Below are positions 13,738-55,059 of a stretch of DNA of 64,000 nucleotides, piece by piece (the first letter of the stretch is position 1; each line of letters begins with the position of its first letter). Both the position numbers and the translations under genes were made by a program. The notes beneath the pieces were generated by a model. It was not told the origin of the DNA, searched no databases, and worked only from the letters and a program-made list of their open reading frames with translations. The stretch lies in the UHGV virus genome UHGV-0038492. One strand, 5' to 3'. This DNA comes from a virus.

Positions 13738-14871
13738 ATGTCAACGTTAGATAGCGACTTAGAAGTGCTTTGTGACGATTACGACCGACTCGTAGCGTTA
13801 GAATCCATTGGAGTAAAAGACAATTATCCGGCTATCGTTGCTATCCGTAAACGTTGGCTTTTGGATGATGTGGTTGTTGCGTCAGAGTCTGCGGCCATGA
13901 TGCACCGTGCACAGTTTTTGTCAGACACGGAACCTGATAAAGGGATAGGCAAAGCGGCGGCACGACTCACCGGACGTGCGGTTCGTGGCGTAAGTCGGGT
14001 AGCAGGACGTGCTGCCAGTGCAGGTGCAAAAGCATCGGCGAACTTCGCAGGTAAACATTCCAAACAACTTGCTTTACGTTTTGTGGATTTTGCTGAGGCT
14101 GCGGGTAAAGAAGTCATTAAGGAATTAAAAGAAGCGACGTCTAAAGCGACGACCTTAGAGCGCAAACTGCAAAAGTTAAATGCACGTCTAAATTTAATCG
14201 GTGACAAAGACACCTTAAAACCGGTTGACTGCGACACGGGAAGCTGGACGACCAAAGTTTGTTTAGAAGACAAACCTAACGTAAAAGCGTGTATTGAGTT
14301 CAGTAAGAACCTGAACGCAATGGATGCGATGGTCAACGAGTATACCGTTAAAACGCGCACCATTATCGGTAAGAGCAAGAAAGTTACTGAGAGTGGCTTG
14401 GAGAAAGTAGGTCGCTCAACGAACTGGGCGATTAAACGTAGTGCAGGGCTGTTCGGTATTATCGATCCGTTTAAAACGGTGAAAGCGTATCCGTGGCCAG
14501 GTAACGTGGTGGTCGTTGAACACGACAACGGTAAGATTGAGTGGGCGATTGCCCGTGATGGTGATTTTGGCCACTCAATCAAATCTCTGAACTTACACGA
14601 AATCGGTTCGGCTCTCGAAGCCGTTGAAAAAATTATCCGAGCTTTACGTCAGCGTGGTACGAAGCGACGTAGCGTTGGTTATACCGGTATTTACGATGAA
14701 GTTCAGCGAATGAAAAAAGAGCTGAAGTCGTTAGACGGTCGTGAGTTACGCGATGCTACCGTTCGGTATAAGAACGCACTGCGTTTAGAAGATGCGTTTA
14801 CTACCTCGTTAGTGCGTGTTGCGGAAGGCTTACTGGAATGGTGCAGGTTGTCGCTGATTGAGGTTAAATAA
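13738..14871 (+). CDS. hypothetical protein
   Basis: 377-aa ORF; Ala/Arg-rich low-complexity segment near residue 80. Confidence 0.7.
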   Translation: MSTLDSDLEVLCDDYDRLVALESIGVKDNYPAIVAIRKRWLLDDVVVASESAAMMHRAQFLSDTEPDKGIGKAAARLTGRAVRGVSRVAGRAASAGAKASANFAGKHSKQLALRFVDFAEAAGKEVIKELKEATSKATTLERKLQKLNARLNLIGDKDTLKPVDCDTGSWTTKVCLEDKPNVKACIEFSKNLNAMDAMVNEYTVKTRTIIGKSKKVTESGLEKVGRSTNWAIKRSAGLFGIIDPFKTVKAYPWPGNVVVVEHDNGKIEWAIARDGDFGHSIKSLNLHEIGSALEAVEKIIRALRQRGTKRRSVGYTGIYDEVQRMKKELKSLDGRELRDATVRYKNALRLEDAFTTSLVRVAEGLLEWCRLSLIEVK

Positions 14872-15338
14872 TGCGTATTACTATTATTCTCAAACCCGAC
14901 AGTAAATACGGAAAGTTATACGGCGACCAGGTACTCAAACTGCACAACATGTTGTTCGCAGAAGAGAAAGTGCGTATTAGTCAGTTAACTGGACGTGACA
15001 CGTTCAACCCCATCGAACGTTTAGAAGAGATTTGGCCTCAAGACTATCTCTGTGCGTGTGCGGTGGGTGACAACGAACAGCTTCTGGGATTTATGACGTT
15101 CTCATTGGGTTCTTGCTCAAAAGACACGTTTGTTTACATCGGGAATTACTATGTGATTCCTGAAGCACGTTCTCAAGGGGTAGGGCGTGCGCTTATGGAC
15201 AAAGTCCGTGAATACGGAAAGTCCAAAGGTTGTGGTTGGATGAGTCTGGATGTGTTAGACAACAACGTTAAAGCTATCTCCTTGTATGAGAAAATGGGAT
15301 TCCGTACCGAATGCAGGGAAATGATAAAGGAAATCTAA
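14871..15338 (+). CDS. GNAT-family N-acetyltransferase
   Basis: YVIPEARSQGVGRALMDKVREYGKSKG matches the GNAT motif A (Q/RxxGxG/A acetyl-CoA loop); ATG overlaps upstream stop. Confidence 0.65.
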   Translation: MRITIILKPDSKYGKLYGDQVLKLHNMLFAEEKVRISQLTGRDTFNPIERLEEIWPQDYLCACAVGDNEQLLGFMTFSLGSCSKDTFVYIGNYYVIPEARSQGVGRALMDKVREYGKSKGCGWMSLDVLDNNVKAISLYEKMGFRTECREMIKEI

Positions 15339-15339
15339 A

Positions 15340-15972
15340 ATGGCTGCAAGATTCGTACCGTTTCATGACGGGTCTAGATATACTTTTGGTGTAGAGCGTT
15401 ACGCTGTGGGTTTTCGTCCTGGTTGGAGAGTGGTACGAATCGATAAAGCGTGTTGGTGTTTACCGACCGGCATTTTTGATTACTTTACGCCTGAAGCTTT
15501 AACGCGGTTTGTTTCTCTGGGTTCTCCCACGCAACGTGCTGCGTGGGAAAAGAATATTCGTTGCCGTTATTTGGGTAAAACACGAAACGCGACGGTACGT
15601 GGTGTTTATCACGTAGGGAGTCGTTGGTTACACGTTGAGCCAACACATCCCCGTTGTGCCGTCACACCCTTTAACGGTGAATATCGCGGTCAGGTGTACA
15701 CGGGGTTACATTTTGCGTTCCCGGATAACCCTGACCTTAATTATTTTCTGGCTACCCCGAAAGACGTTACATTAGCCACGTTCTATAAATACCTTTTGTT
15801 CTATCCTGCCTACGTCGTTGCAGAATACGAACACAAAGCATTTCCTCTGCCTTACGGTAGAGACAGGAGATTAGCAGGATGTTCTATCGAGAACTTCAGC
15901 AATACACCGACGCTCTCCGAAAAGCGACCATTGATGCTCACAACAACCTCAGAGATGTCGTTAGCGTTATAG
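15340..15972 (+). CDS. hypothetical protein
   Basis: 210-aa ORF; 3' end overlaps next ORF by 94 nt in another frame. Confidence 0.6.
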   Translation: MAARFVPFHDGSRYTFGVERYAVGFRPGWRVVRIDKACWCLPTGIFDYFTPEALTRFVSLGSPTQRAAWEKNIRCRYLGKTRNATVRGVYHVGSRWLHVEPTHPRCAVTPFNGEYRGQVYTGLHFAFPDNPDLNYFLATPKDVTLATFYKYLLFYPAYVVAEYEHKAFPLPYGRDRRLAGCSIENFSNTPTLSEKRPLMLTTTSEMSLAL

Positions 15973-16250
15973 AACAGTGTTCGGATGTATTGTATGCGGA
16001 AACGATTGAAACGCCAACCCACGACGGTGTGAAATCGCTCCAGCTACACGTTTGTAGTAAACACGGCAGTCTGTCGTTAAACTTCCGTGTAGGTTTAGAT
16101 TATTACATGGTTCGTAAGAGCTATTTAAGTTGTGACGGTGACCTTTATCCGGTTGTCTGGAACAACGATTATTCTAAGTTTGTTTATCCACTTGAAGAAC
16201 ACCGACGCACGGTTTATGAATTTGTGAAAGCTGTTCTCGAGGGGTTCTAA
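15879..16250 (+). CDS. hypothetical protein
   Basis: 123-aa ORF with GGAG-type RBS; overlaps upstream ORF by 94 nt. Confidence 0.5.
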   Translation: MFYRELQQYTDALRKATIDAHNNLRDVVSVIEQCSDVLYAETIETPTHDGVKSLQLHVCSKHGSLSLNFRVGLDYYMVRKSYLSCDGDLYPVVWNNDYSKFVYPLEEHRRTVYEFVKAVLEGF

Positions 16251-16263
16251 AGAGGGTATTGTG

Positions 16264-16869
16264 ATGTCAGAGATGATTCTCGACTCATTACTGCTGATTA
16301 CGGTGGCGTATATCAACAAAACCGGTAAGCTACCAAAGCGTGGGGTGACGATTGAACGGGAGGGGTTTAAGCACCGCTACCCGTTAACGAAAGTTCTCGA
16401 TTTGGCAGCGCGGTTAGCGAAGATGCGTAGACCGACGTCAGACGCAGCACCGAAGTACGTCTTAGTGGTACTCCAACGTGCGATTTCTGAAGTCCGTCGT
16501 GCGCGTCGTCGTGCCTCGTTTCGCTTTTATCCAAACTCTACGCAGCAGGTTGTGGGGGTCTATAACGAAATGGTTGTTGATTTACGTACCGAACACTGTA
16601 ACGTTACAGGACTTGCGTATAACCGCCTCAAACGCATTCTGGACGACTCAGACGCGTTTACCACACCGCAAGAAGGTCAAGCGGCTTTAGCGCTTCTACG
16701 AGGCGCTGAGCTCGTTATTGTGGACACCGCAGTACAGGCCGCAAGAATGCAGCACTATCTTGCTAAGCAAGGATTAGTTTTACTGTGTGTTCCGTCTGCA
16801 CAGGCTGCTAATCTTACCGCACCGGAAACGTCAGAAGTGTGGAGTGGTCCGATTGTTGACCATCAATAA
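16264..16869 (+). CDS. hypothetical protein
   Basis: GAGGG RBS before ATG at 16264; terminator downstream. Confidence 0.65.
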   Translation: MSEMILDSLLLITVAYINKTGKLPKRGVTIEREGFKHRYPLTKVLDLAARLAKMRRPTSDAAPKYVLVVLQRAISEVRRARRRASFRFYPNSTQQVVGVYNEMVVDLRTEHCNVTGLAYNRLKRILDDSDAFTTPQEGQAALALLRGAELVIVDTAVQAARMQHYLAKQGLVLLCVPSAQAANLTAPETSEVWSGPIVDHQ

Positions 16870-16874
16870 AACCT

Positions 16875-16911
16875 TACCCCTACCTATCGGTAGGGGCGGG
16901 TTTCTTTTTTT
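16875..16911 (+). terminator. intrinsic terminator
   Basis: CCCCTACC-TATC-GGTAGGGG then T-run. Confidence 0.75.
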
Positions 16912-17008
16912 ATCCTAAAATTTATTACAACCAATAGCTATTATGTGAACGCCGGTATGGAATAAAGAAGTATCGGTTTAAATTTTTGTGCGTAAAGGTA
17001 AAACGATA

Positions 17009-17632
17009 ATGCTTAAGACAGTGTCTATTGATGGCCCTGACTTTTCTGGGAAATCGACGTTGTGCAAAATAGTAAAAGGTATGCTGGAATCTGCGGGGTT
17101 AAAGGTCTGCATCCGTAATCACCCTACGACGGAGACCGAAGCGGGTATCCGCGCACGCAGTTTAGTCGTTCAGTCCGCAGCAAAAGCAAAAATTGCCGAA
17201 GCGATGTGCGACGATTTCCTTCACACGTTAGACCATGTTGTTGACGATTACGATGTTGTTATTTTCGACAGGTTCTGTCCCTCTACAATCGTTTACCAGG
17301 GTGTCGACGGTAAAGACGAAGTTTTCCGACGTAAGCTAACGCGTCATTTCCACGCACCAGATTTGTACGTTTGGACGGACGTGGATTACGACGGCGCAGT
17401 AGCACGCTTTAAGAAACGGGTAGAAGAACAAGGTAAGAATTGGGACGACGAGGTTCTTACCGTTAAGTATTTAAAAGACAACCAAAGTTGGGAAGCGTTA
17501 CGTGACCACTACCGCTTTGCCCACCACATCCTCACTGAAGGCGGTTGTCTGCACCATTTATTACCCGTGAAGCAAGACGACGATTACCGTTTGAAAGCGG
17601 CTGAAATCGTTGCTTGTATTTTAGAGAATTAA
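17009..17632 (+). CDS. P-loop nucleoside-monophosphate kinase (thymidylate-kinase-like)
   Basis: N-terminal IDGPDFSGKSTL matches the xDGxDGxGKST P-loop of thymidylate/dNMP kinases; start moved to ATG 17009. Confidence 0.6.
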   Translation: MLKTVSIDGPDFSGKSTLCKIVKGMLESAGLKVCIRNHPTTETEAGIRARSLVVQSAAKAKIAEAMCDDFLHTLDHVVDDYDVVIFDRFCPSTIVYQGVDGKDEVFRRKLTRHFHAPDLYVWTDVDYDGAVARFKKRVEEQGKNWDDEVLTVKYLKDNQSWEALRDHYRFAHHILTEGGCLHHLLPVKQDDDYRLKAAEIVACILEN

Positions 17633-17640
17633 TCACATAC

Positions 17641-17674
17641 CCCTACCTTCGGGTAGGGGATTATTTAATTTTTT
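17641..17674 (+). terminator. intrinsic terminator (UUCG tetraloop)
   Basis: CCCTACC-TTCG-GGTAGGG then T-rich tract; immediately upstream of promoter-like motif. Confidence 0.65.
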
Positions 17675-17715
17675 CTCAGATATATATTACCTTAGTGAGA
17701 TTACACAGTAATCTC
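17671..17715 (+). promoter_or_regulatory. promoter-like motif TTTTCTCAGATATATATTACCTTAG followed by hairpin (copy 1)
   Basis: Near-identical 20-nt AT-rich element recurs at 39209 and 43638; hairpin GAGATTA-CACAG-TAATCTC follows; sits just after a terminator and ~55 nt before the HTH gene. Confidence 0.55.
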
Positions 17716-17750
17716 TTTACGACTTGTTCTACAGATTAGGATTAAATATC

Positions 17751-18110
17751 ATGGCTTACAATCACAACTCTATTGTTTTAGCAAAACGTAAATTCGGTCT
17801 TCATCTTTCTTACGTGATTCGTCATTTGACAGCGAAAGACATTACACAGCGTGAACTTGCCCAGCTTGCGAAAGTTTCACAGCCGGTTATTTCATCTATT
17901 AAGAACGATCATAGCGAACGCCTGAGTCTACCAATAATGATGAAGGTTGCTGATGCAATTCGTCTGAAATATCAGATTACGTTTAATTCTGTTAAAGGGC
18001 GTTGCTCAGTAACGGTTCACGTAGAGTCTGCGTTGGACTACGTTGCAAATACGTCCCTTAAACGTACAGCGAAAAATATTCGTTTTGTTACTAACAGCGC
18101 AACACACTAA
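17751..18110 (+). CDS. helix-turn-helix DNA-binding protein (XRE/Cro-like)
   Basis: ITQRELAQLAKVSQPVISSIKN is a typical HTH; gene lies about 55 nt downstream of a promoter-like motif; ATG at 17751. Confidence 0.55.
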   Translation: MAYNHNSIVLAKRKFGLHLSYVIRHLTAKDITQRELAQLAKVSQPVISSIKNDHSERLSLPIMMKVADAIRLKYQITFNSVKGRCSVTVHVESALDYVANTSLKRTAKNIRFVTNSATH

Positions 18111-18131
18111 TCAACCTAAAGGAGTATTATC

Positions 18132-18815
18132 ATGGCACCGAAAACTAAGAAAACTGAAGTTAAAGAAACTGTAGAAAAGCCGACTGATACTAAGGAAGCG
18201 GAAGTTAAGCAGACTGGGCCTAGCAAGAAGCTTGCGCTTATGCCACCCACCACAGAAATACACGGGGATAAAATCTTAAGTTACACTCCGCGCGCGAGTT
18301 TAACGATGGATATTTACCATTACCCGGTATTCGACCTGTACACGCTTGTCTGTCGACTCGACGATGAGATACTGGCAGTCGTTCCAGGTATCCACAAAGA
18401 AAAACTGCTTACGGGTTCAGTCATTAGCGAGATTTTCCTGCGCTTGATGTTTAAATCAGACGATAAGATGATCAGCCAGATTGCTAGTAAATTGACTGAC
18501 TTCTTTGTTGAGGCTTCAACGTGGTTAGGCTTTCACCCAACGGCTTATTTCATTTTCGACACCAAAATGTTGTATGCTGAAATGGGCGATAGCGTTAAGT
18601 ATCCTATCTTGCTTAATGAAGAAGTCGTTCCGTTTTCCCTTACCAGTCCTAACAAACATCTTCGCTTTCATCCTGCGTTAGAAAACCTGATTGAATACAA
18701 TCGGTTGGAAAAATATTACGCTTATCATCGCATGTTCTTTGAACTTCTGCGTGATAAATTAAGAGGCAAAGTTCCAGATTCTAGTGCAGCATTCACTAGT
18801 TCTAAGCTTTGGTAG
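18132..18815 (+). CDS. hypothetical protein with basic Lys/Glu-rich N-terminus
   Basis: AAAGGAG RBS; 227-aa ORF; terminator downstream. Confidence 0.65.
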   Translation: MAPKTKKTEVKETVEKPTDTKEAEVKQTGPSKKLALMPPTTEIHGDKILSYTPRASLTMDIYHYPVFDLYTLVCRLDDEILAVVPGIHKEKLLTGSVISEIFLRLMFKSDDKMISQIASKLTDFFVEASTWLGFHPTAYFIFDTKMLYAEMGDSVKYPILLNEEVVPFSLTSPNKHLRFHPALENLIEYNRLEKYYAYHRMFFELLRDKLRGKVPDSSAAFTSSKLW

Positions 18816-18828
18816 TTTGTAACAAACA

Positions 18829-18856
18829 GGGAGCTTCGGCTCCCTTTTTCTTTTTA
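18829..18856 (+). terminator. intrinsic terminator (UUCG tetraloop)
   Basis: GGGAGC-TTCG-GCTCCC then T-run. Confidence 0.7.
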
Positions 18857-18901
18857 CAACTTTTTCTTTTGTTGTGAGGAAAGCCGATAAGGAGTATTAA
18901 A

Positions 18902-19888
18902 ATGGTATATCGTAAAACGATAGAAAGAACCTCTTCTGATTTAACCGTAGGACGCTTAACCCGTAGAGATATTCGCAATCCTCAGCTTCAGGCATGTTTA
19001 ACGGGGCCTAACGGTGCGGTGATTCGAGAAGCACTGTGTAATACCGAGCTGAATACGTTCTCTTTACAAAAAGGAAAAACAATCCAAGGGTTTATCATCA
19101 CAAAACACATTTACGGCGACCCAACGTTACACTGCTTGTATATGCACGAAATTGTACCTGGGTGTTTGAACAAACTGAGCCTTCTATTGGTACTTGACTA
19201 TACGGGTTTTACGTACCTTAACCGAATTGCCAGAGGTGTGGAAGAAATCGCCGAGCTTAACGATTTAGGGTTTAGACATACCCACACAGCATATCGTTTA
19301 GGTACACGTAAGTTACTGGATGTCACTTTACCGACGAACGTGAAGAACGTCTCCGACGACTTCTATAAAGACTTAACCGGAGCACAACGTGAACAGCTTA
19401 TGATGTTGCTTGGCACTAGCGTCGTTGAAAACATCAATGCTGACCCTGTAACGCGTTCTCGACAAATAATGCCACAAGTTGAAACATTGGTGGAATTAGT
19501 GCGGCACGTCAATCACTACACTTACGTTTGGATGGACGGTAATGACGTTGTGGGTGTGGTGCAAGTTAAATCACGCAATCTTAGCGAGTGCGAACTAAAA
19601 GCCATTGCGGTAAGTGAAACACACCGGGGCCGTGGGATTGGGCGTGCGTTGTTGTACCGTGCTTTACAGATTGCATCGACAACAGCGGCACCATTAGAAA
19701 TAGGGTGTTACAATAACAACCCAGCATTTAGACACCTGGCCGTAGATTTGTTTAAATTCCGTCCCTACGAGTACGAATTTGTTTTAGTGCGCGACGACGA
19801 TGTCGTCAGTTGGGAGCGTCGGAAAAACCGCGTCGAGTTAGTGTTAGGCGACGAAATGTCATCGTTACAAGGCGGAATTAATGCATAA
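18902..19888 (+). CDS. protein with C-terminal GNAT acetyltransferase domain
   Basis: AAGGAG RBS; C-terminal VVGVVQVKS...AIAVSETHRGRGIGRALLYRALQIA matches the GNAT acetyl-CoA loop. Confidence 0.6.
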   Translation: MVYRKTIERTSSDLTVGRLTRRDIRNPQLQACLTGPNGAVIREALCNTELNTFSLQKGKTIQGFIITKHIYGDPTLHCLYMHEIVPGCLNKLSLLLVLDYTGFTYLNRIARGVEEIAELNDLGFRHTHTAYRLGTRKLLDVTLPTNVKNVSDDFYKDLTGAQREQLMMLLGTSVVENINADPVTRSRQIMPQVETLVELVRHVNHYTYVWMDGNDVVGVVQVKSRNLSECELKAIAVSETHRGRGIGRALLYRALQIASTTAAPLEIGCYNNNPAFRHLAVDLFKFRPYEYEFVLVRDDDVVSWERRKNRVELVLGDEMSSLQGGINA

Positions 19889-20696
19889 ACCAATTATAAA
19901 GTGGATGGGTGGCAAATCGCGGATTATCGACACCTTACTACAAGTCTTACCTGAACGTACCACTTTCGTTGAACCGTTTGTTGGCGCAGGGTCAGTGTTT
20001 TTGAACACACGTTATAAACGTTACATTCTTGCTGACTCTAACCCTGACTTAATCCAGTTGCTGAATGTAGCGAAAGACCAACCTGAAGAACTTATCTTGA
20101 AGTCGAAACCGCTATTCGAAGACGGTAACGATTGTATTAAGTATATGGAGAGACGAGAACTGTTTAATCGCGAAACGGATATGGCTCCGTTAGACCGGGC
20201 AGCAATGTTTCTGTACTTAATGCGTCACGGTTTTAACGGGATGTGTCGTTACAACGGCAGCGGGGGTTTTAACGTTCCGTTTGGTCGCTATCCTAACGGT
20301 GTGTATTACCCGTTAGAAGAGATTCGTGGTTGGGCTAAACGTTGTCAAGAACCGGAATACTTAGAAATTGTTTGTGAAGATTTCCGAACAGTTTTAGAGC
20401 GTACGCCGGAAGACAGTGTGATTTACGCAGACCCACCGTATATACCGCTCTCAGAGACCGCTAAACACGCGCAATACCATCGGAAGGAGTTTTCCCAGGC
20501 CGACCATCGGGAACTCGCCAGAGCGCTGTTTAAGCAGGTTGAGAAGGGGAATAGCGTTGTGTTGTCCAATGCGGATACGTTACTAACGCGTGAGATTTAT
20601 TACGGGTTCGAATGGCGTTCTGTGGAAGTTGGCCGATACATGGGTGCGTCAGGTGCTGCTCGTAAAACGGTAACGGAATTGTTAGGAGTGCTCTAA
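19881..20696 (+). CDS. DNA N6-adenine methyltransferase (Dam/D12 class)
   Basis: N-terminal KWMGGK (SAM-binding motif I of Dam/T4 Dam) and catalytic DPPY in VIYADPPYIPL. Confidence 0.8.
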   Translation: MHKPIIKWMGGKSRIIDTLLQVLPERTTFVEPFVGAGSVFLNTRYKRYILADSNPDLIQLLNVAKDQPEELILKSKPLFEDGNDCIKYMERRELFNRETDMAPLDRAAMFLYLMRHGFNGMCRYNGSGGFNVPFGRYPNGVYYPLEEIRGWAKRCQEPEYLEIVCEDFRTVLERTPEDSVIYADPPYIPLSETAKHAQYHRKEFSQADHRELARALFKQVEKGNSVVLSNADTLLTREIYYGFEWRSVEVGRYMGASGAARKTVTELLGVL

Positions 20697-21469
20697 TGCG
20701 TATAGTGGATATCCACGATTATCGTAATGACCATTTAGCGATTGGTGTAGAAGGTAAGATGGTTTCGTTAACCCGTGTACGCAAAGGGTTAATGGAAAAG
20801 GAGATCATTCGGGAGTCCGAAGACCCTACCTTTATCATCCTTTCGAACACTAATCAGTTACAGGGCATCTTTTCAGGGCGTGCTGACGGTAAGATTTTCT
20901 ATATGTCCGCAATCGTTGTGTTTGCGAAGAAGAACATCAACTTTGCCCAACTCAAACGTTTGTTAAACGTGAAGATGTTTGATGTCACCTACCCTGCTAA
21001 TGACCTAAAACGTCGTGATCAGTTAATGGCGTTTTTGGGTATGCAGCCAACGTCAATCGATTATGACCTTACGATTACTGAAAAGCCGGAAGTACGTACT
21101 GACTTACCTGACGTGGTCGACGTTGAATCCCTAACGTTAGAAGAGACGTTTACGATTCCTAAGGTTGTTAATGTCAACCTGGACACGCACTGTTTAGGGT
21201 TGTTAGCCGTAGGTGCAGCAGAAGGGTTGTGTTGTCGTAAAGACGGTAAGGTTGAAGGAATCTTAGTCTATTCGAAAATCAACGAAAAGACGTTTGCCAC
21301 CGAAGGCTTTTTCTATAACGACTGTACTTACGGAAACGCACTACTAACCACGTATTTCCGTATTGCTTATCTGAAAGGCGCAACTGTACGCCTCACGTTT
21401 CCATACACAGCTCCACCGTCTATGGGTGGAGTTGAGGTAGAACCATTAACCGGCCACTTTATCTTTTAA
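20696..21469 (+). CDS. hypothetical protein
   Basis: 257-aa ORF, ATG overlaps upstream stop. Confidence 0.65.
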   Translation: MRIVDIHDYRNDHLAIGVEGKMVSLTRVRKGLMEKEIIRESEDPTFIILSNTNQLQGIFSGRADGKIFYMSAIVVFAKKNINFAQLKRLLNVKMFDVTYPANDLKRRDQLMAFLGMQPTSIDYDLTITEKPEVRTDLPDVVDVESLTLEETFTIPKVVNVNLDTHCLGLLAVGAAEGLCCRKDGKVEGILVYSKINEKTFATEGFFYNDCTYGNALLTTYFRIAYLKGATVRLTFPYTAPPSMGGVEVEPLTGHFIF

Positions 21470-21478
21470 GGATGATGA

Positions 21479-21706
21479 ATGGAAATCAAACGTATTGTAA
21501 CCAAAAACAAACAGATTGTTTACGTCGCAGGTGATAACGAATTCTCGGCGGTAATCAACAGCGAAAATGTGCTCGTTATCGGTTATCCGGGTAAAGTTAT
21601 TACGCGCAGTCACCAACGTGTGATTGACAAACTTATCGCAAAAGCGAAAGCGCGTGACGGTGTTGGTTCAGTACAAACCCACACGGGGTTAACGCTGGCC
21701 CTCTAG
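21479..21706 (+). CDS. small hypothetical protein
   Basis: 75-aa ORF with AAGGA RBS. Confidence 0.5.
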   Translation: MEIKRIVTKNKQIVYVAGDNEFSAVINSENVLVIGYPGKVITRSHQRVIDKLIAKAKARDGVGSVQTHTGLTLAL

Positions 21707-21745
21707 TCAGCAGGTAATATGACCTCTTAACTGGAGACTTTAATA

Positions 21746-22252
21746 ATGAGTGAGACTCTGGATTTTAATCAGCTCGAACAACACGATTTCGACCTCGGTG
21801 TTCGTGATATCGATGCTGATCATGAAACACGTTGTAAAGAGCTGTTTAACCGTTACGGTCAGCTCATCACCGGTGCCTCTGATGACACCGAATTCAGTTT
21901 AGATGAGTTTGAAAAAGTTCTGTCGTGTTTTATCACTGACTGTCTGGCGAAGAAAGCGTTGCTGGTCGAACTGAACTTAGACTCCGTCGAACCTACTGAT
22001 GCCCATGCGGTGTTGAAAGAATCCATTATCCCAACTGATGAGATTATGGACACTGTCGCAGGTATTCGCGGTACGTTTGAAACTGCCGTAGAAGAATACA
22101 CGGAACAGCTTCGTGAATCAGGACTGACGTTGTGTGCGCCAGCAGGTGAGCCTTTACCGTCCGACGAAGAAACTGAAGAAGCGCGTAGTCGCTTAGCGCG
22201 TTATGTTATTACGTCTATCTTGGTAGATGATCGCGAAGAGAATCTGCTATAA
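21746..22252 (+). CDS. acidic hypothetical protein
   Basis: 168-aa ORF, strongly acidic; terminator downstream. Confidence 0.6.
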   Translation: MSETLDFNQLEQHDFDLGVRDIDADHETRCKELFNRYGQLITGASDDTEFSLDEFEKVLSCFITDCLAKKALLVELNLDSVEPTDAHAVLKESIIPTDEIMDTVAGIRGTFETAVEEYTEQLRESGLTLCAPAGEPLPSDEETEEARSRLARYVITSILVDDREENLL

Positions 22253-22256
22253 GCTG

Positions 22257-22294
22257 CCCCTCTCTCCGTTTGGAGAGAGGGTGTATTTATTTTT
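22257..22294 (+). terminator. intrinsic terminator
   Basis: CCCCTCTCTCCG-TTT-GGAGAGAGGG then T-rich tract; near-identical to the hairpin at 23304. Confidence 0.7.
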
Positions 22295-22350
22295 ACGCGT
22301 ATAGCCGTAGTTATGCACAAGTAAACAAAATTAATTGAGGAAACAATCTG

Positions 22351-22668
22351 ATGTGGTTAAGTGCTATTCACCGTGATTTGCCAAAACGTGAAGTGTCGTT
22401 TACTGTTGAGGACGCACCGATTGAGGTAGGCGTCGCGAAATTCGAAAGAATCGAAGAAGGGCAGTTTGTTGTAATGGATGACAACGACAACGAATTTATG
22501 TTGTTCCATCCGGAAGTTGACACGTCTGAAATTTGTGACGGTGTTCTTTTGTTGTCTTGGCAAAACCCTGAAACCAAAGAATGGATGTGGTGTGTTGCTA
22601 AACCGACAAATGAAGCCGAAACTGCATACGTGTTTGGGGAAATTTATGTCGAGCCAGAACCGCACTAA
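22351..22668 (+). CDS. hypothetical protein
   Basis: GAGG RBS; 105-aa ORF. Confidence 0.55.
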   Translation: MWLSAIHRDLPKREVSFTVEDAPIEVGVAKFERIEEGQFVVMDDNDNEFMLFHPEVDTSEICDGVLLLSWQNPETKEWMWCVAKPTNEAETAYVFGEIYVEPEPH

Positions 22669-31937: not shown

Positions 31938-34900
31938 ATGGCAAAAGCGGTAAAGAAAATACGATTACATAATCTTAGACCATATACCGGTGATATCGGT
32001 GAAGGCGTTTTACTTTTCTCCAAGGATGAGAAAGATTATAAGTTACCAGTCCGTGAGATCATTGCGGATATTGACACCGTACGTAATGCGGTGGCTGAAG
32101 CACAGACAGCAGCAACACAATCACAAGAAGCTGCAACTCAGGCTACACAAGCAAAGAATTTAGCAGAAACAGCAAAACAACAAACTGACACCGTTGCAGC
32201 TACGGTTGCTCAACAAGCGCAAACTGTAACCGAAAAAGCAACTGAAGTCGGTACAAAACACACTGAAGTGTTAGCCGCGAAAACTGCGGTAGACGAAGTA
32301 TCAGTGTCGGTGAATGAGAAGGCTCAAGCTGTCGCCGCAAGCGAACAATCGGTGACGGCTGCTGCGGCTGATGTAACTAAGAAAGCAGAAACGGTTGCGC
32401 AACAGGCCGGACAAGTTCAACAGACGGCTACCAGCGTCGCAAATACTGCGGCATCAGTTGAGGCCAGTAAAGGTGCAGTGGAGAAAATTGCTGCGCAGGT
32501 CACGAAAGATAAAGAAACGTCGGAGGGCGCGGCTACCCGCTCAGAAGCGGCCGCACAACGTGCTGAGAAAATCGCCGCCCAAGGCTTAGTTGACGCTAGT
32601 ACGATCGGTAAAGGCATCGTTAAACTTAACGATACCCTGACTAGTGAATCCGTGACGGAGGCTGCCACGCCGTCCACGGTTAAACAGCTGAACGACGAAT
32701 TACAGTTAAAAGCCAATAAACATTCGCCGAATTTTACGGGTAAACCGACATCCCCAAAACCGCCGAAGGACTCGAATGACACGAGCATCTCCACAACGTC
32801 CTGGGTGCGTGACGCGATTGCTGAATTGGTTGGTTCCTCACCCGAGACGTTAAATACCTTAGCGGAATTAGCAGAGGCGTTAGGTAATGACCCTAACTTC
32901 GCAACAACGATCACTGAGGAGCTTGCGCAGAAGCAACCTATCAGCCCATTACTCACCGCAATCGCTGCGGTTACAAGTGCAGCAAACAAACTCCTGTATT
33001 TCACGGGCTCTAATAAAGTCGAGTTAACCGATTTTACAGAAACTGCCAGATCCTTGTTAGCGAAAGGGTCAACTGCGGATATTATTAACTTCCTGGGTTT
33101 GAAACCCACCGTTGATAAAGCAAACGGCGCACTACAGAAAAACTCTAACGGTGCTGATATCCCAAATAAAGAAACTTTTGCTCGCAACATCGGCCTATCT
33201 CCTGATACCTATCTGCGTTTCCGTGGCAAAATGCCTGTAGATGCTGATATTAACACATTTGCTCCAGATGCTAATTACACAGGAACGTGGTCTAAGTCGA
33301 CATCAACCAATGCGTCGATGGCAAAACACTTCCCAGAAGACGGTGCAGTCGGTTATCTGGAAGTGTATAAAGCGGGCAACTACAGTGGCGCGCAACGTTT
33401 TACCTGTCGTAATGGTAACGTGTACAACCGTATGTTGTCAGCCGCGTGGAACGGAACTAATGGCCCGTGGTCGCCGTGGAGAATGGTAACTACCGGTGTA
33501 CGCCCGTTATCTACATCGATTGATCTGAACTCTTTAGGCGGTGCCGAACACATGGGTAACTGGCGTAACTCGTCCAGTTCGTTAGCGGTGTTTGACAGAC
33601 ATTATCCTGAAGAGGGCGGTGGCGCTCAAGGTGTTCTGGAAGTCATGGAAGGTGGTCTTTACGGACGGTTGCAGCGATACACTACGCGTCGTGGCACAAT
33701 GTATGTCCGTGGTTTGACTGCAACATGGGATTCATCAAACCCACAATGGGAAGATTGGATTCAGGTTGGTTATCAGACTGACGGTGCTTTCTTTAAAGCC
33801 AATTTTAACGATCTCGTTAAACCGGGTCGTTTCAGTGTCACTGGTCAGGCAACTAACGGCCCACTTACCGGTTCTTCTGGCGAAACCATATTAGGCGTTT
33901 GTGAAGTTACCTTACGCTTAGACGGTACAGGGGTCGAACAGAATTATACCACATACGGCACGGGTGCAGAAACTAAAGGTCGTAAATTCCAACGTATCCG
34001 TACGGGTAACATTTGGAGCGATTGGCGTGAGGTTTTCACATCCTATTCGCTTCCGTTGGCCTTAGGTATCGGTGGGGTTGCTGCCAAGGTCGATCCGTTA
34101 GACTGGCAAACCTTCGACTTCGTTCCTGGCCAGATGATAAGCACACCGTTGAATACCATGAAAAACATTCCTGCGGGAATGGATTGGGGTGTTATTGACG
34201 GTAACTTGGTCACTATTCTTGTAGGGGCGTCGGAGGACACCGGTACTGGTCGGAGTATGTTGGTCTGGCGTGGTACAGTGTCTACTGCTAACTATCGCTT
34301 CTTTGCAGTACGTATCGCCGGTGAGAAGGGTAGCCGTACGATTACGCCACGACAGATGCCTGTGTTAAATGCAGCACACACTTGGGCCGAGAAACAAACG
34401 TTCTCTAAAGGCTTAGCGGGTGAATTGACAGGTAATGCGTCAACGGCAACGAAACTGAAAACAGCCCGTTTAATCGGTGGTGTAAGTTTCGACGGCACTA
34501 GCGACATTCCACTCCCTGGTGTTAACCAGCAAGGTAATCAAAACACCACTGGGAACGCGGGAACCGCAACCAAATTACAAACGGCTCGAAACATCAACGG
34601 TGTGAAATTCGATGGCTCTAGAGACATCAATATCAACACCTTGGTAGGACGTGGACGTGTTACTGCACTGACGGGATCAAACAAAGGTACGCCTGGTATT
34701 CAGATGTACGAAGTTTACAATAACGGTTATCCGACCGCTTATGGTAACTTATTGCATTTGGGTGGTGCTACTGCGCTAGGCGAAGGCGAGTTGTTAATCG
34801 GATGGTCGGGGACGAGTGGTGCGCACGCGCCAGTTTATATTCGTAGCCGACGTGATACGGCTGACGCGCCGTGGTCAGATTGGGCACAAGTTTATACTGC

Positions 34901-36497
34901 CCGTGACAGCATTCCTGGCGTAAATGCCACAGGTAATCAAGATACTACCGGCAATGCCGCTACCGCGACGAAACTGAAAACCGCTCGCAGAATTGGAGGC
35001 GTTACCTTTGACGGTACTGGGGATATCAATTTACCGGGGGTTAACCAAGCCGGTAACCAGAATACGTCAGGTAATGCTGCGACAGCGACTAAACTTCAGA
35101 CTGCGCGAAATATAGGCGGTGTGGCTTTTGATGGTACTAAAGACATCAGTTTACCTGGTGTAAACCAGACGGGTAATCAGTCGACTACCGGAAACGCAGC
35201 CACGGCCACAAAGTTGCAGACAGCTCGTACCATTAACGGTATCCCATTTGACGGCACTAGAAATATATCGTTAGGGCCTGCCGATATAGGTTGCCCGGCA
35301 TCACCTAGTGGTTGGTTAGAAACTGGCGCTGATGGCGCTGCAATAACTACAGCACAGCTAGTGACGTTATTGAAAAATAACGGCGCGTTTACCACAAGAT
35401 CGTGGGTTGCTCGCTGCGCATGGGCTTATGCCGCTAGTGCAAGTATACCTCATAGCGAGACGGGTTGTGGTGTTATTCCATTAGCTGGGGCTGTTATAGA
35501 AGTGATTAGTAACGGCAACAGCACAAACAACTACACGATCCGTATAACGACCGCCACAACGACGAGCGTCTCCGGCGCACTCACTAATGCGGAGTTTATC
35601 TACGTATTTAACGGCGATACTTACTCACCAGGTTGGCGTCGCGTGTACAATACGAGAAACAAGCCAACTGCTGCGGATGTTGGGGCGTTGCCATTATCTG
35701 GCGGTCAGTTGAATGGCGCGTTGGGTATTGGAACCACTAATGCTTTAGGTGGGAACTCCATAGTTTTAGGGGATAATGACACCGGCCTTAAGCAGAACGG
35801 GGATGGCGTTCTAGATGTTTACGCCAATAATGCTCATGTTTTACGCTTTACGAGTGGGGCTGTTCAAAGCAATAAACCTCTCAACGTTACCGGAGATATA
35901 AGAACCAATACTTGGGTTTATGCAAATAGATATTCTATTAACAGCAACTCAGGTTCTTGGATTAGCATGAGAGACCATAACGTTATTTTTGGTCTTAATC
36001 CGGTAGGAACTAGTTCTGCTCAGGCATTGTTAAGACAAGACCATGCTGATAGGAAATTTTTTGTTGGTGGTTTAGGTAACTATCAATTCGGCTTTTACAT
36101 GATAAACAACTCACGTACTGATAATGGCACCGATGCTAATGCTTATTTGCAAAACGACGGTACTTGGGTTTGTGGTGGGAACGGTAACTTTAACGACGTT
36201 TATATACGATCTGACGCCCGGCTGAAAAGTAATTTCTCTCCAATAACTAATGCATTGGAGAAGGTAAAGGAATTGTCAGGTTTAATATACGACAAAAAGG
36301 AGAACTTTAAATCCACTAATGTTCATCGTGAGGCTGGTGTTGTAGCGCAGACCTTACAAAAAGTGTTACCTGAAGCAGTTTCTACTTATAAAGACGCTAA
36401 TGGTGAGGACGTTTTGACGGTCTCTAACTCTGCACAAATAGCTCTACTTATTGAAGCAATAAAGGAGTTGGCGGAGATAATTGAGACCAAGTTATAA
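31938..36497 (+). CDS. long tail fibre protein with C-terminal intramolecular chaperone (peptidase S74-like) domain
   Basis: 1519 aa; conserved N-terminal anchor; Ala/Gln/Thr-rich helical stretch; four knob-like repeats ending W-x-x-W; five copies of the TGNAATATKLQTAR...FDG fibre repeat; C-terminal SDARLKSN motif of endosialidase/T5-fibre-type self-cleaving chaperones. Confidence 0.9.
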   Translation: MAKAVKKIRLHNLRPYTGDIGEGVLLFSKDEKDYKLPVREIIADIDTVRNAVAEAQTAATQSQEAATQATQAKNLAETAKQQTDTVAATVAQQAQTVTEKATEVGTKHTEVLAAKTAVDEVSVSVNEKAQAVAASEQSVTAAAADVTKKAETVAQQAGQVQQTATSVANTAASVEASKGAVEKIAAQVTKDKETSEGAATRSEAAAQRAEKIAAQGLVDASTIGKGIVKLNDTLTSESVTEAATPSTVKQLNDELQLKANKHSPNFTGKPTSPKPPKDSNDTSISTTSWVRDAIAELVGSSPETLNTLAELAEALGNDPNFATTITEELAQKQPISPLLTAIAAVTSAANKLLYFTGSNKVELTDFTETARSLLAKGSTADIINFLGLKPTVDKANGALQKNSNGADIPNKETFARNIGLSPDTYLRFRGKMPVDADINTFAPDANYTGTWSKSTSTNASMAKHFPEDGAVGYLEVYKAGNYSGAQRFTCRNGNVYNRMLSAAWNGTNGPWSPWRMVTTGVRPLSTSIDLNSLGGAEHMGNWRNSSSSLAVFDRHYPEEGGGAQGVLEVMEGGLYGRLQRYTTRRGTMYVRGLTATWDSSNPQWEDWIQVGYQTDGAFFKANFNDLVKPGRFSVTGQATNGPLTGSSGETILGVCEVTLRLDGTGVEQNYTTYGTGAETKGRKFQRIRTGNIWSDWREVFTSYSLPLALGIGGVAAKVDPLDWQTFDFVPGQMISTPLNTMKNIPAGMDWGVIDGNLVTILVGASEDTGTGRSMLVWRGTVSTANYRFFAVRIAGEKGSRTITPRQMPVLNAAHTWAEKQTFSKGLAGELTGNASTATKLKTARLIGGVSFDGTSDIPLPGVNQQGNQNTTGNAGTATKLQTARNINGVKFDGSRDININTLVGRGRVTALTGSNKGTPGIQMYEVYNNGYPTAYGNLLHLGGATALGEGELLIGWSGTSGAHAPVYIRSRRDTADAPWSDWAQVYTARDSIPGVNATGNQDTTGNAATATKLKTARRIGGVTFDGTGDINLPGVNQAGNQNTSGNAATATKLQTARNIGGVAFDGTKDISLPGVNQTGNQSTTGNAATATKLQTARTINGIPFDGTRNISLGPADIGCPASPSGWLETGADGAAITTAQLVTLLKNNGAFTTRSWVARCAWAYAASASIPHSETGCGVIPLAGAVIEVISNGNSTNNYTIRITTATTTSVSGALTNAEFIYVFNGDTYSPGWRRVYNTRNKPTAADVGALPLSGGQLNGALGIGTTNALGGNSIVLGDNDTGLKQNGDGVLDVYANNAHVLRFTSGAVQSNKPLNVTGDIRTNTWVYANRYSINSNSGSWISMRDHNVIFGLNPVGTSSAQALLRQDHADRKFFVGGLGNYQFGFYMINNSRTDNGTDANAYLQNDGTWVCGGNGNFNDVYIRSDARLKSNFSPITNALEKVKELSGLIYDKKENFKSTNVHREAGVVAQTLQKVLPEAVSTYKDANGEDVLTVSNSAQIALLIEAIKELAEIIETKL
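34428..35272 (+). repeat. in-frame tandem tail-fibre repeats (about 38 aa each), five copies interrupted by one knob-like domain
   Basis: Protein-level repeats GNQNTTGNAGTATKLQTARNINGVKFDGSRDI and variants; nucleotide copies are diverged. Confidence 0.8.
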
Positions 36498-39210: not shown

Positions 39211-39258
39211 TTCTCAGATATATATTACCTAGAGGAGAGCGAAATTTACATTCGCTCT
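39209..39258 (+). promoter_or_regulatory. promoter-like motif TTTTCTCAGATATATATTACCTAG followed by hairpin (copy 2)
   Basis: Identical core to copy 1; hairpin AGAGCGAA...TTCGCTCT; sits after a terminator and ~50 nt before ORF 39286. Confidence 0.55.
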
Positions 39259-43637: not shown

Positions 43638-43682
43638 AATTTCAGATATATATTACCTAGGTGAGAGTTCAGCTACTCTCAC
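43638..43682 (+). promoter_or_regulatory. promoter-like motif ATTTCAGATATATATTACCTAG followed by hairpin (copy 3)
   Basis: Identical 18-nt core; hairpin GTGAGAG...CTCTCAC; ~50 nt before ORF 43712. Confidence 0.55.
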
Positions 43683-43711
43683 TTAACTAAACCATTTTAG
43701 GAGCATATACC

Positions 43712-53226: not shown

Positions 53227-53774
53227 TCATCGTCTCCTTTAATCAATCCTAATTCGATTAACAGTTCAAAATCGATATGACGGAATCTTGTATCAAAATC
53301 CGATTCCCAATCGATGCGGATACCCTGGCACTCTTCTGATGTTAGCTCGGGAAAAATTACGGTATTAAATTTCTCACGCTCATCGTAAAACCCATCAATC
53401 GGTGAGTTCGGGTTACGCGTTGCGAAAATAGTAATACCAGGGAAAGATAATGCTAACACAGTGATAGATTCTGCGCTGGGCTCACTTAAAGAGCGGCGTA
53501 GAAACGCAATTTTGTGGCGTGGGAAGTCCAATACGCGTTCTTCAAACCCTGGATTACGTTTTTCGATTTCCGCTACCGACAGGTCAGTAAGTTCGGTGCA
53601 ATACATTGGGATGATTACAGTCACGCCGTGGCGAATCAGTAAACGTTTTACGTCATCGGTAAAATCTTCGCCGTTAATCATCACGTAACAACCGAACAGC
53701 TTACTGTTTTCCAGAAACTTATCCAGAAGTCGAATTCTACGCTTCGTAATATTGTTGATCAGAATTGGTTTCAT
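53202..53774 (-). CDS. hypothetical protein co-operonic with radical-SAM enzymes
   Basis: 190-aa ORF overlapping both neighbours. Confidence 0.6.
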   Translation of the reverse strand: MKPILINNITKRRIRLLDKFLENSKLFGCYVMINGEDFTDDVKRLLIRHGVTVIIPMYCTELTDLSVAEIEKRNPGFEERVLDFPRHKIAFLRRSLSEPSAESITVLALSFPGITIFATRNPNSPIDGFYDEREKFNTVIFPELTSEECQGIRIDWESDFDTRFRHIDFELLIELGLIKGDDECLLLVKA

Positions 53775-55059
53775 CTTTGGCTTCTCTTAATAATTTTTCC
53801 TTTTGGGCGCGTTCACGAACACAGCGTGGGCAATAACACATACTCGTGTCGTGGAACGCTTTTGCTGACGTCGTACCCATCTTCTGTTTCCAGTATTCCG
53901 CCACCATCAGTTTCGCTGTCGTCCACCCGCACTGACGTCGCTCAGCGTGATACGCTTTACGGTCTTCCAGTGTCCCTTCACCGTTTTCGTAAGAAGCCGC
54001 AGCGCAGCTACCACAAGCGTGTTTCATCGGACAACCTAAGCACGTCTCTGGATAGTTGGTATATTGTGTTTGAATCTCTTCTAACAATTTACCGTTGTCC
54101 AGGCTGACGAATTCCCGACCTACCAACTCAAATACCGCAGAACGTGATGTTACGGTTGACATAAAGCGATTGCAACCGAAGATCTTACGGTCAAAACCTA
54201 AACACGTCATGTGTGTTAATGTCCCACAGAACGGACGTAAACGTTCTGGGTTCAACCGCACCGTGTCATTATAAAGTAATTGATCACGCCAGTTCGGTTC
54301 CCAAATCGTATCGAAATCCAACCCTTCTGGGATGATGTGCGATAAGATATTACGTGGGTTGGTGTGTAATCCTTTCTCGACCCAATAATCAATCACATCC
54401 ATCATCTGCAATGCAATTGAAGTAGCCATCCCACGTGGCATAATGTCTTCGAAGGTTACGTTGCCGGAGATAGTTCCGCCACCAGTAATATCAATTAATG
54501 ACTTCATTCCGGCAGCATAGTACGGTAACGTTTCTAACGTAAAGGTCGCCTTTACGCCAAGCTCTGCAATGCCAACCTCTTTTAAGTAGTTATAGCCTCG
54601 TACTGCGGCTTCGTAAGAACCCTGGCGCGTCGTTGTAAAGATACGATAACGGTCATGGGACTCAGGTAAGCCGTCAATTGAAACCCCAACCGAAAGTTTG
54701 TCTTTCCAACGCTCTACGATCTCACGGTTCAACGGGCGATCTAACAACGTCCCGTTTGTGGAAATACTAAACATAAACGGCCGATTATGTTCTTTACACA
54801 ACTGCTCGGCGGTTTCAAATGCAGCCAGCAGCAACTTAGGCTGCATGAACGGTTCACCACCGATAATGTCAATAATAACTTCAACATTCGGTTCGTTTTT
54901 ATCGCGTTCAAAACAGGCGTGCAAGAAATCAACAATATCTGCCGCTTTGTTGTTACGCGGGTACTTACGTTCGTAACAATATTCGCAGTCCAGGTTACAC
55001 GAAAGGTTCGTTACAATCTGATACGTTAGCTGCTTAGGGAATTCATTTACCTGACTCAT
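53737..55059 (-). CDS. radical SAM enzyme with C-terminal SPASM-like Cys cluster (anSME/peptide-maturase-like)
   Basis: N-terminal CNLDCEYC (CxxxCxxC), GGEPFM SAM-binding motif, and C-terminal cysteines (CLGCPMKHACGSC...CYCPRC) typical of auxiliary Fe-S clusters. Confidence 0.75.
   Translation of the reverse strand: MSQVNEFPKQLTYQIVTNLSCNLDCEYCYERKYPRNNKAADIVDFLHACFERDKNEPNVEVIIDIIGGEPFMQPKLLLAAFETAEQLCKEHNRPFMFSISTNGTLLDRPLNREIVERWKDKLSVGVSIDGLPESHDRYRIFTTTRQGSYEAAVRGYNYLKEVGIAELGVKATFTLETLPYYAAGMKSLIDITGGGTISGNVTFEDIMPRGMATSIALQMMDVIDYWVEKGLHTNPRNILSHIIPEGLDFDTIWEPNWRDQLLYNDTVRLNPERLRPFCGTLTHMTCLGFDRKIFGCNRFMSTVTSRSAVFELVGREFVSLDNGKLLEEIQTQYTNYPETCLGCPMKHACGSCAAASYENGEGTLEDRKAYHAERRQCGWTTAKLMVAEYWKQKMGTTSAKAFHDTSMCYCPRCVRERAQKEKLLREAKDETNSDQQYYEA

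Follow-up and report, generated by a model that had tools for sequence, protein, structure and literature searches.

What does a Dam-type DNA methyltransferase contribute to a bacterial virus when no restriction enzyme appears to accompany it? The question is raised by a 64,000-nucleotide stretch of the UHGV virus genome UHGV-0038492 (hereafter, the window), in which a first-pass annotation had picked out a Dam-like gene, with KWMGGK and DPPY motifs and no restriction enzyme next to it, downstream of a nucleotide kinase-like gene and a helix-turn-helix (HTH) gene that follows a promoter-like motif. Restriction evasion and expression timing are the textbook options for the role of a phage Dam, and the annotation had proposed these two; both are plausible for the gene as it reads. 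We favor, with a probability of roughly 0.6, the reading that the gene encodes a stand-alone GATC methyltransferase that would fully methylate progeny DNA, would be transcribed together with a gene for a GNAT-domain protein and a downstream open reading frame (ORF) of 257 codons (ORF257), and would benefit the phage by protecting its DNA upon entry.

The gene at 19881 to 20696 bears out its Dam-type label. Its product matched PF02086 with 195.9 bits (cutoff, 22; E = 1.3e-57) over residues 8 to 250 and the dam subfamily model TIGR00571 with 254.7 bits (cutoff, 114.85), whereas its score of 255.6 bits against NF008152, the equivalog model for the housekeeping Dam of enterobacteria, fell below the cutoff of 441. 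The top PADLOC model for the ORF was an orphan methyltransferase. The predicted product is a Dam-family (D12, alpha-class) N6-adenine methyltransferase and not an ortholog of the cellular enzyme. Its best solved relatives are both GATC enzymes, namely, E. coli Dam (2G1P; E = 1.1e-63), to which it is 44.6% identical over 260 residues, and DpnM (2DPM; E = 1.8e-41). When the protein was mapped onto E. coli Dam, both motifs named in the first-pass annotation fell into place with the remaining landmarks of the family:

19899-19916, plus strand: KWMGGK, residues 7 to 12, with K7 (equivalent to K9 of E. coli Dam) at 19899-19901
19977-19991, plus strand: FxGxG cofactor motif, F33-V-G-A-G37, aligned to F35, G37, and G39 of E. 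coli Dam
20232-20291, plus strand: recognition hairpin, F118 to Y137, between FxGxG and DPPY, which is the alpha-class order
20430-20441, plus strand: DPPY, D184 to Y187, catalytic motif IV, corresponding to D181 to Y184 of E. coli Dam

The six positions reported to read GATC in the E. coli Dam-DNA structure (K9, Y119, N120, L122, R124, and P134; Horton et al. 2006) are occupied here by K7, F118, N119, M121, R123, and P133. The only changes among these residues are thus Y119 to F and L122 to M. T4 Dam carries the same F and M at the two positions. Further residues of E. coli Dam that are kept include D54 and S188, R137 and Y138 (here R136 and Y137), and R95, N126, and N132 (here R92, N125, and N131), the last three of which contact phosphates in the E. 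coli Dam-DNA complex. Because the DNA-contact residues of E. coli Dam are conserved, GATC is the expected target, and it is highly likely, judging from these alignments, that the phage enzyme shares both the chemistry and the recognition site.

The gene is also far from unique among large phages. The protein is 73% identical to gp028 of Erwinia phage phiEaH2 (YP_007237678.1) and 67% identical to gp105 of Salmonella phage SPN3US (AEP83938.1/YP_009153399.1), orthologs labelled Dam occur in at least 31 jumbo-phage records at 60 to 80% identity, and more distant copies are present in other Erwinia and Vibrio jumbo phages. The closest relatives outside the jumbo phages are Dam genes in Pectobacterium, Dickeya, and Erwinia genomes (45 to 49% identity), at least one of which is labelled as a phage gene. 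Proteins with 100% identity were found only on metagenomic or other assemblies, one of them a 222,818-bp European Nucleotide Archive metagenome contig; near-identical phages are present in several public assemblies. Since both the GC content of the gene and its GC content at third codon positions match the window average, there is no sign of recent capture, and the gene appears to be a long-standing resident. By these comparisons, Dam is predicted to be an ordinary, well-conserved accessory gene of SPN3US- and phiEaH2-like members of the Chimalliviridae, in which it is already annotated.

Both the identity of the Dam protein and the order of its flanking genes place the closest relatives of the window in the Seoulvirus (SPN3US) and Erskinevirus (phiEaH2) lineages, which are classified in the nucleus-forming family Chimalliviridae. 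These matches suggest that the source phage belongs to this family; the gene for the defining shell protein, chimallin, and the RNA polymerase genes were not seen in the 64 kb and lie outside them. The window encodes a phiKZ-type internal head protein, its large ORFs code for virion, tail, and internal-head proteins of the phiKZ/SPN3US type, and it has no tRNA genes. The order kinase, HTH, ..., GNAT, Dam, ORF is common to the window, SPN3US (gp100 to gp106), STsAS, and phiEaH2, except that the GNAT gene is missing in phiEaH2. A comparison of annotated gene order in the fetched stretches of SPN3US and phiEaH2 with the ORF classes of the window indicated that the entire window is apparently collinear with both genomes.

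A second feature that bears on the role of Dam is the scarcity of its expected target. The window contains 123 GATC sites, relative to 258.8 expected under a maximal-order Markov model (observed/expected ratio [O/E], 0.48; z = -11.3), which makes GATC the most depleted of the 256 tetranucleotides; shuffles that preserved dinucleotides gave 181.6 ± 14.2 sites. GATC also ranked first among depleted tetranucleotides in SPN3US (O/E, 0.37; 100 to 150 kb) and phiEaH2 (O/E, 0.26; 1 to 50 kb). In contrast, it ranked 32nd in phiKZ (O/E, 0.89; 100 to 150 kb), although these are 50-kb samples and phiKZ, the sole control, differs in both host and Dam status. Dam and top-ranked GATC avoidance thus occur together in phages of Dam-positive Enterobacterales, whereas the Pseudomonas phage phiKZ shows neither. 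Counter-selection of GATC in enterobacteriophages has been linked to the action of MutH on unmethylated DNA (McClelland 1984; Deschavanne and Radman 1991, both as cited in PMC5014478), and phage yields fall in dam-negative, mutH-positive cells according to work cited in the same article.

The sites that remain are scattered. Five neighboring pairs lay within 25 bp of each other (~5.7 are expected for random spacing), and no pac-like cluster of GATC was present in these 64 kb, although the genome ends may lie outside them. We considered whether Dam sits in an unusually long GATC-free stretch, but the two gaps in question, 14464-17907 (the longest) and 18470-20803 (the fourth longest), are unremarkable at a mean spacing of 520 bp. 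As a separate observation, TATG/CATA is among the most depleted tetranucleotides in the window, SPN3US, phiEaH2, and phiKZ (z = -5.2 to -8.5). TATG forms the core of phiKZ late promoters, which are read by the non-virion RNA polymerase (PMC7598289), and the need to avoid spurious late starts may account for its scarcity.

With which genes is Dam expressed? The first-pass annotation had set Dam beside the kinase and HTH genes in a way that implied an association. All three genes that it named are present, on the plus strand and within the coordinates given, and independent gene calls on the identical metagenome contig returned the same ORFs. However, two genes between HTH and Dam, those for ORF227 and the GNAT protein, had gone unmentioned, as had three terminators, the Chimalliviridae context, the annotated Dam orthologs, and the avoidance of GATC. 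The locus reads as follows:

16877-16896, plus strand: terminator-like hairpin CCCCTACCTATCGGTAGGGG with a T-rich tail (8 pairs, 6 of them GC), ending the upstream unit before the kinase gene
17009-17632, plus strand: thymidylate-kinase-family P-loop kinase, 207 amino acids (PF02223, phrog_761), forming its own transcription unit
17640-17659, plus strand: terminator-like hairpin CCCCTACCTTCGGGTAGGGG with a T-rich tail, after the kinase gene
17678-17692, plus strand: early-promoter-like 15-mer AGATATATATTACCT, upstream of the HTH gene
17697-17715, plus strand: hairpin GAGATTAC-ACA-GTAATCTC, just downstream of the 15-mer, with an RNA fold of -8.2 kcal/mol
17751-18110, plus strand: Cro/C1-type HTH protein, 119 amino acids (HTH_37/HTH_26/HTH_3, phrog_7126), ortholog of SPN3US gp101
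18132-18815, plus strand: ORF227, 227 amino acids, no family match, sharing a unit with the HTH gene
18828-18845, plus strand: terminator-like hairpin AGGGAGCTTCGGCTCCCT with a T run, ending the HTH unit
18849-18877, plus strand: TCTTTTTACAAC...TTGTTGTGA, a non-coding element conserved in relatives and preceding the GNAT-Dam operon
18902-19888, plus strand: 328-amino-acid protein with a C-terminal GNAT domain (PF00583, 1.2e-11; phrog_8663, 3.3e-44), ortholog of SPN3US gp104
19881-20696, plus strand: Dam, 271 amino acids (PF02086, TIGR00571)
20696-21469, plus strand: ORF257, 257 amino acids, ortholog of SPN3US gp106 and phiEaH2 gp029
21479-21706, plus strand: ORF75, 75 amino acids
21746-22252, plus strand: ORF168, 168 amino acids
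22258-22281, plus strand: strong terminator-like hairpin CCCTCTCTCCGTTTGGAGAGAGGG (10 pairs, 7 of them GC), the probable end of the GNAT-Dam unit

The terminator-like hairpins divide these genes into three units, namely, the kinase gene alone, HTH with ORF227, and GNAT-Dam-ORF257-ORF75-ORF168. Within the last of these, the final 8 nucleotides of the GNAT gene are also the first 8 of Dam (ATGCATAA), and the last base of the Dam stop codon doubles as the first base of ORF257 (TAATG). The kinase, HTH, and Dam genes are therefore predicted to be neighbors and not a module, with no transcript that the first two have in common with Dam, and the association implied earlier did not hold up.

The operon that contains Dam is preceded by the conserved element at 18849-18877, which is unique within the window. 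Its consensus, TCTTTTTAC(A/G)...(T/A)TG(T/A)TGTGA, is shared by the window phage and, at the orthologous position, by SPN3US, STsAS, and phiEaH2, which makes four phages of three lineages, and in phiEaH2, which lacks the 328-amino-acid GNAT gene, the element stands directly before Dam. It may serve as a promoter of a non-early class or as an operator. An Rfam search of 16500-22500 gave no match at E values up to 0.1.

Could the kinase, the HTH regulator, and Dam nonetheless act as one functional module in which, for example, HTH controls Dam or the kinase feeds nucleotides for modified DNA? Their order is kept in SPN3US, STsAS, and phiEaH2, and the locus-specific conserved element between the HTH unit and the Dam operon could be an operator. 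However, collinearity with SPN3US and phiEaH2 appears, in the stretches fetched, to extend across the window, so that conserved order carries little functional information, and the three terminator hairpins place the genes in independent units, only one of which, that of HTH, bears the early-promoter motif. Dam moreover acts after DNA synthesis and needs no special nucleotide pool. A module of this kind strikes us as very improbable.

The promoter-like motif that the first-pass annotation had placed before the HTH gene is real. Exact copies of AGATATATATTACCT occur in the window only at 17678, 39216, and 43644, all three of which are intergenic, on the plus strand, and co-oriented with the downstream gene; matches with up to three mismatches numbered 6, relative to 1.55 expected in the 64 kb. 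Each exact copy follows a T-rich stretch and precedes a stable hairpin that starts with GAGAG or GAGAT, the resulting modules spanning 17678-17715, 39216-39258, and 43644-43685. In phiEaH2 and SPN3US, the motif recurs unchanged before the HTH ortholog, where the letters of the hairpin stem differ but the pairing is kept, and more copies precede other genes of these two genomes. The motif is also present in STsAS. A megablast search of 16900-20800 against a phage collection returned a single match of 66 bp (17639-17704), to the Salmonella phages STsAS and SPAsTU, and this match proved to be another copy of the terminator and early-promoter module and not the ortholog of this spacer.

Early promoters of jumbo phages, which are read by the virion RNA polymerase, have been found bioinformatically as a highly conserved AT-rich element of ~10 nucleotides upstream of early operons (PMC7598289). 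AGATATATATTACCT is predicted to belong to this class, which has been described for jumbo phages with RNA polymerases of their own. It is not a sigma-70 promoter; a sigma-70 scan found 10 sites, relative to 13 expected by chance, none of them before the named genes. The hairpin at 17697-17715 is probably the 5' stem-loop of an early transcript. It was also considered as an operator for the HTH protein, which was ruled out because the three hairpins differ in sequence and have only the GAGAG-like start in common. Since the early-promoter motif precedes it, the HTH gene is predicted to be an early gene. In contrast, the motif was not found before the Dam operon, and GATC is absent from the motif and its flanks, so that timing of the early promoter by Dam, one form of the earlier suggestion, is without support.

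The two upstream genes are themselves only broadly classifiable. The kinase matched PF02223 with 64.2 bits (cutoff, 27; E = 1.6e-17) and phrog_761 at 3.3e-39, carries a P-loop (GPDFSGKST) and a DRF-x-x-S-x-x-YQG motif, and hit the thymidylate kinases of PDB at E = 3e-7; its orthologs are SPN3US gp100 and phiEaH2 gp025. Against the dTMP-kinase equivalog TIGR00041, it scored 52.9 bits, below the cutoff of 83.25, with residues 5 to 141 of 207 aligned. It is predicted to be a divergent member of the Pfam thymidylate-kinase family with an uncertain substrate, for which the earlier label, dNMP-kinase-like, was a fair one. The HTH protein matched only generic Cro/C1-type models (HTH_37, 2e-07; HTH_26; HTH_3) and the phage-specific phrog_7126 (6.9e-32), and no solved structural relative was found. 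The alternative upstream starts GTG 16988 for the kinase and TTG 17724 for HTH were judged less likely than the ATG codons at 17009 and 17751 because the latter give lengths equal to those of the SPN3US orthologs or the independent calls, and ribosome-binding sequences of the AGGA/AAGG type are present. In ORF227, Lys, Glu, and Thr abound in the first ~40 residues (MAPKTKKTEVKETVEKPTDTKEAEVKQ...), which are reminiscent of basic nucleic-acid-binding tails. A second GNAT gene (155 amino acids; 14871-15338) directly follows a gene for an internal head protein, placing two GNAT genes within 5 kb.

The favored reading also depends on Dam standing alone. Searches of Pfam, NCBIfam, PADLOC, and PHROGs found no restriction-enzyme families among the neighbors of Dam, in agreement with the first-pass annotation, and a Pfam search of 65 further plausible ORFs in the window, which yielded 12 families, including structural proteins, an endolysin, and radical SAM, found neither a nuclease nor a second methyltransferase. 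At the sensitivity of these family libraries, Dam is apparently an orphan. The neighbor that deserves most attention is ORF257, for which Pfam, NCBIfam, and PADLOC gave no match and PHROGs a family of unknown function alone. It is 22 to 26% identical to SPN3US gp106 and phiEaH2 gp029, and where the window has one such gene, the genomes of SPN3US, STsAS, and phiEaH2 have two divergent paralogs apiece. Among 1.84 billion representatives, an exhaustive HMMER search detected 6 relatives, all consistent with this phage group; the homolog search otherwise gave only proteins at least 89% identical. An AlphaFold model built from a shallow alignment reached a predicted local distance difference test score of 31.7 and was not used for fold comparison. 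A weak collinear BLASTP alignment linked ORF257 with the GNAT protein (E = 0.006), but the profile-profile probability was 0.1, and we do not claim paralogy.

Given that restriction enzymes are often missed by family searches, and that ORF257 has neither a known family nor a predicted structure, there is room for Dam and ORF257 to form a restriction-modification or toxin-like pair, in which case the methylase would not be an orphan. Their TAATG overlap is of the kind typical of coupled operons. However, no nuclease family or motif was found in ORF257, and nothing in its sequence argues for a nuclease. Among four ORF257 orthologs, no lysine, one histidine, and one asparagine are invariant, a pattern that fits neither PD-(D/E)XK nor HNH sites. 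Two paralogs per genome in SPN3US, STsAS, and phiEaH2 would be unusual for a restriction enzyme, the family is very narrow, with its 6 members confined to this phage group, and a GATC endonuclease would be useless against hosts that methylate their own GATC sites. We give such a pair hardly any credence.

How, then, would a stand-alone Dam serve the phage? We propose that the enzyme would transfer methyl groups from S-adenosylmethionine to the N6 position of adenine in the GATC sites of phage DNA. Even with rapid replication, and in a compartment that may shut out the host Dam, both strands of the few remaining sites would thereby stay fully methylated. DNA packaged in this state would reach its next host already protected from nucleases that attack GATC lacking the methyl group on one or both strands, and genome-wide avoidance of the site would complement this protection. 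Nucleus-forming jumbo phages have been noted to encode few DNA-modification enzymes, and those present may protect the DNA right after entry (Iyer et al. 2021, PMC7824862); a role in entry protection agrees with that suggestion.

Several points weigh against this proposal. The hosts are Dam-positive Enterobacterales, and host methylation might suffice. The nucleus of the Chimalliviridae reportedly excludes restriction enzymes, and the injected genome is reported to be enclosed early (PMC12707154), which makes the need for methyl protection questionable. Sites that are methylated and protected would not obviously need to be avoided, and their avoidance could instead reflect methyl-dependent nucleases, or the depletion could be tied to the host rather than to the phage Dam. 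The time at which Dam is expressed is judged solely from the absence of the early motif. Searches of the literature for methylation or genetic data on SPN3US gp105 and phiEaH2 gp028, for experimental work on Dam in the Chimalliviridae, and for DpnI/MboI tests on jumbo phages found nothing specific; papers that mention a gp105 apparently deal with proteins of other phages.

These difficulties leave space for other roles. GATC methylation could instead cue packaging, the start of replication, or late transcription. Phage P1 with its dmt/pac system offers a precedent, and a regulatory role of orphan phage methyltransferases is likewise documented (PMC12707154). An operon without the early motif may be expressed during replication and packaging, Dam has been kept across several genera, and the reduced set of GATC sites could consist of retained functional ones. 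However, no GATC occurs within or beside the early-promoter motif, and the remaining sites are unclustered, with nothing like a pac cluster in the 64 kb. A signaling role is possible, but we regard it as doubtful. Alternatively, Dam may act mainly on host DNA or do little, as a dispensable cytoplasmic enzyme of no consequence for phage DNA inside the nucleus, its gene having been acquired by an ancestral phage from an enterobacterial host or prophage. The location of its closest non-jumbo relatives in Pectobacterium, Dickeya, and Erwinia genomes would fit this origin, DNA-modification enzymes are generally few in nucleus-forming phages (PMC7824862), and even for T4 Dam, the function in vivo has yet to be settled (PMC12707154). 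On the other hand, the ORF is intact, its catalytic and DNA-contact residues are kept at only 45% identity to E. coli Dam, it has been held at the same locus across genera whose proteins have diverged to 65 to 73% identity, and its composition is fully ameliorated. Intactness, retention of the locus, and amelioration together point to purifying selection on a working enzyme. Moreover, these hosts already methylate their own GATC sites, and additional methylation of their DNA would change little. We consider a host-directed or idle Dam unlikely.

Returning to the proposal that Dam protects entering genomes, a more specific form of it can be put forward tentatively. Unmethylated or hemimethylated GATC may be a liability even for nucleus-forming phages, with the host Dam excluded from the compartment and the phage Dam imported into the nucleus as a self-marking enzyme. 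MutH, SeqA, or a restriction enzyme would in that case reach the genome at injection, in the early vesicle, or during packaging at the shell. If this is true, the phage Dam could serve as a probe of passage through the nuclear shell. More generally, it is mildly noteworthy that phages whose replicating DNA is presumably sheltered from host nucleases combine a predicted GATC methylase with avoidance of the site, a combination that gives a testable clue as to when host enzymes gain access to such a genome and whether the host Dam is excluded. The gene itself adds one ortholog, from an uncultured phage, to a set annotated in dozens of SPN3US-like jumbo phages, and the early-promoter 15-mer, the 5' hairpins, and the terminators can guide annotation of the remaining genome and of related phages.

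Elsewhere in the window, several features deserve mention. A close relative of ORF257 lies on a 187-kb contig filed under a Shigella sonnei assembly, and Pfam detected T-even-type Gp38 tail-fiber adhesin domains in two or three ORFs of the window; together, these observations hint at an Escherichia/Shigella host. A tail-fiber ORF of 1519 amino acids (31938-36497) has no counterpart of equal size at the matching place in the fetched SPN3US stretch. Seven ORFs matched DUF7941, a paralogous family of virion proteins, and one carries DUF488-N3a. Two adjacent minus-strand ORFs, at 53737-55059 and 55043-55966, encode radical-SAM proteins (phrog_1802; Pfam Radical_SAM and Fer4_12), both of which are present in SPN3US. 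The pair may function in metabolism or in the modification of nucleic acids, with no connection to Dam.

Comparison with known systems places the enzyme among GATC methylases that differ in their partners. DpnM (M1.DpnII; 2DPM) has the same GATC target but has an adjacent restriction enzyme, whereas none was found for the window Dam. E. coli Dam (2G1P, 4RTJ) belongs to the same fold family, has the same motif order, and likewise works without a partner restriction enzyme, but its cellular roles in marking strands for mismatch repair and in oriC/SeqA timing do not transfer directly to the enzyme of a lytic nucleus-forming phage. T4 Dam (1YFL, 1Q0T) and P1 Dmt are, like the window Dam, phage-encoded orphan GATC adenine methylases, and packaging of P1 requires Dam methylation of its pac site (PMC12707154). 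T4 Dam is nevertheless distant (E of ~1e-7), and the window Dam belongs to the E. coli Dam/DpnM branch and not to the T4 branch, which is the most common one in jumbo phages (Iyer et al., PMC7824862). In DNA sequence, the window phage departs from SPN3US and phiEaH2 in that similarity detected by megablast is limited to the 66-bp promoter/terminator module, and it carries one ORF257-type gene where they carry two paralogs. Even so, SPN3US gp105 and phiEaH2 gp028 resemble the window Dam in length class, genomic position, and flanking genes, with the GNAT gene shared by SPN3US only.

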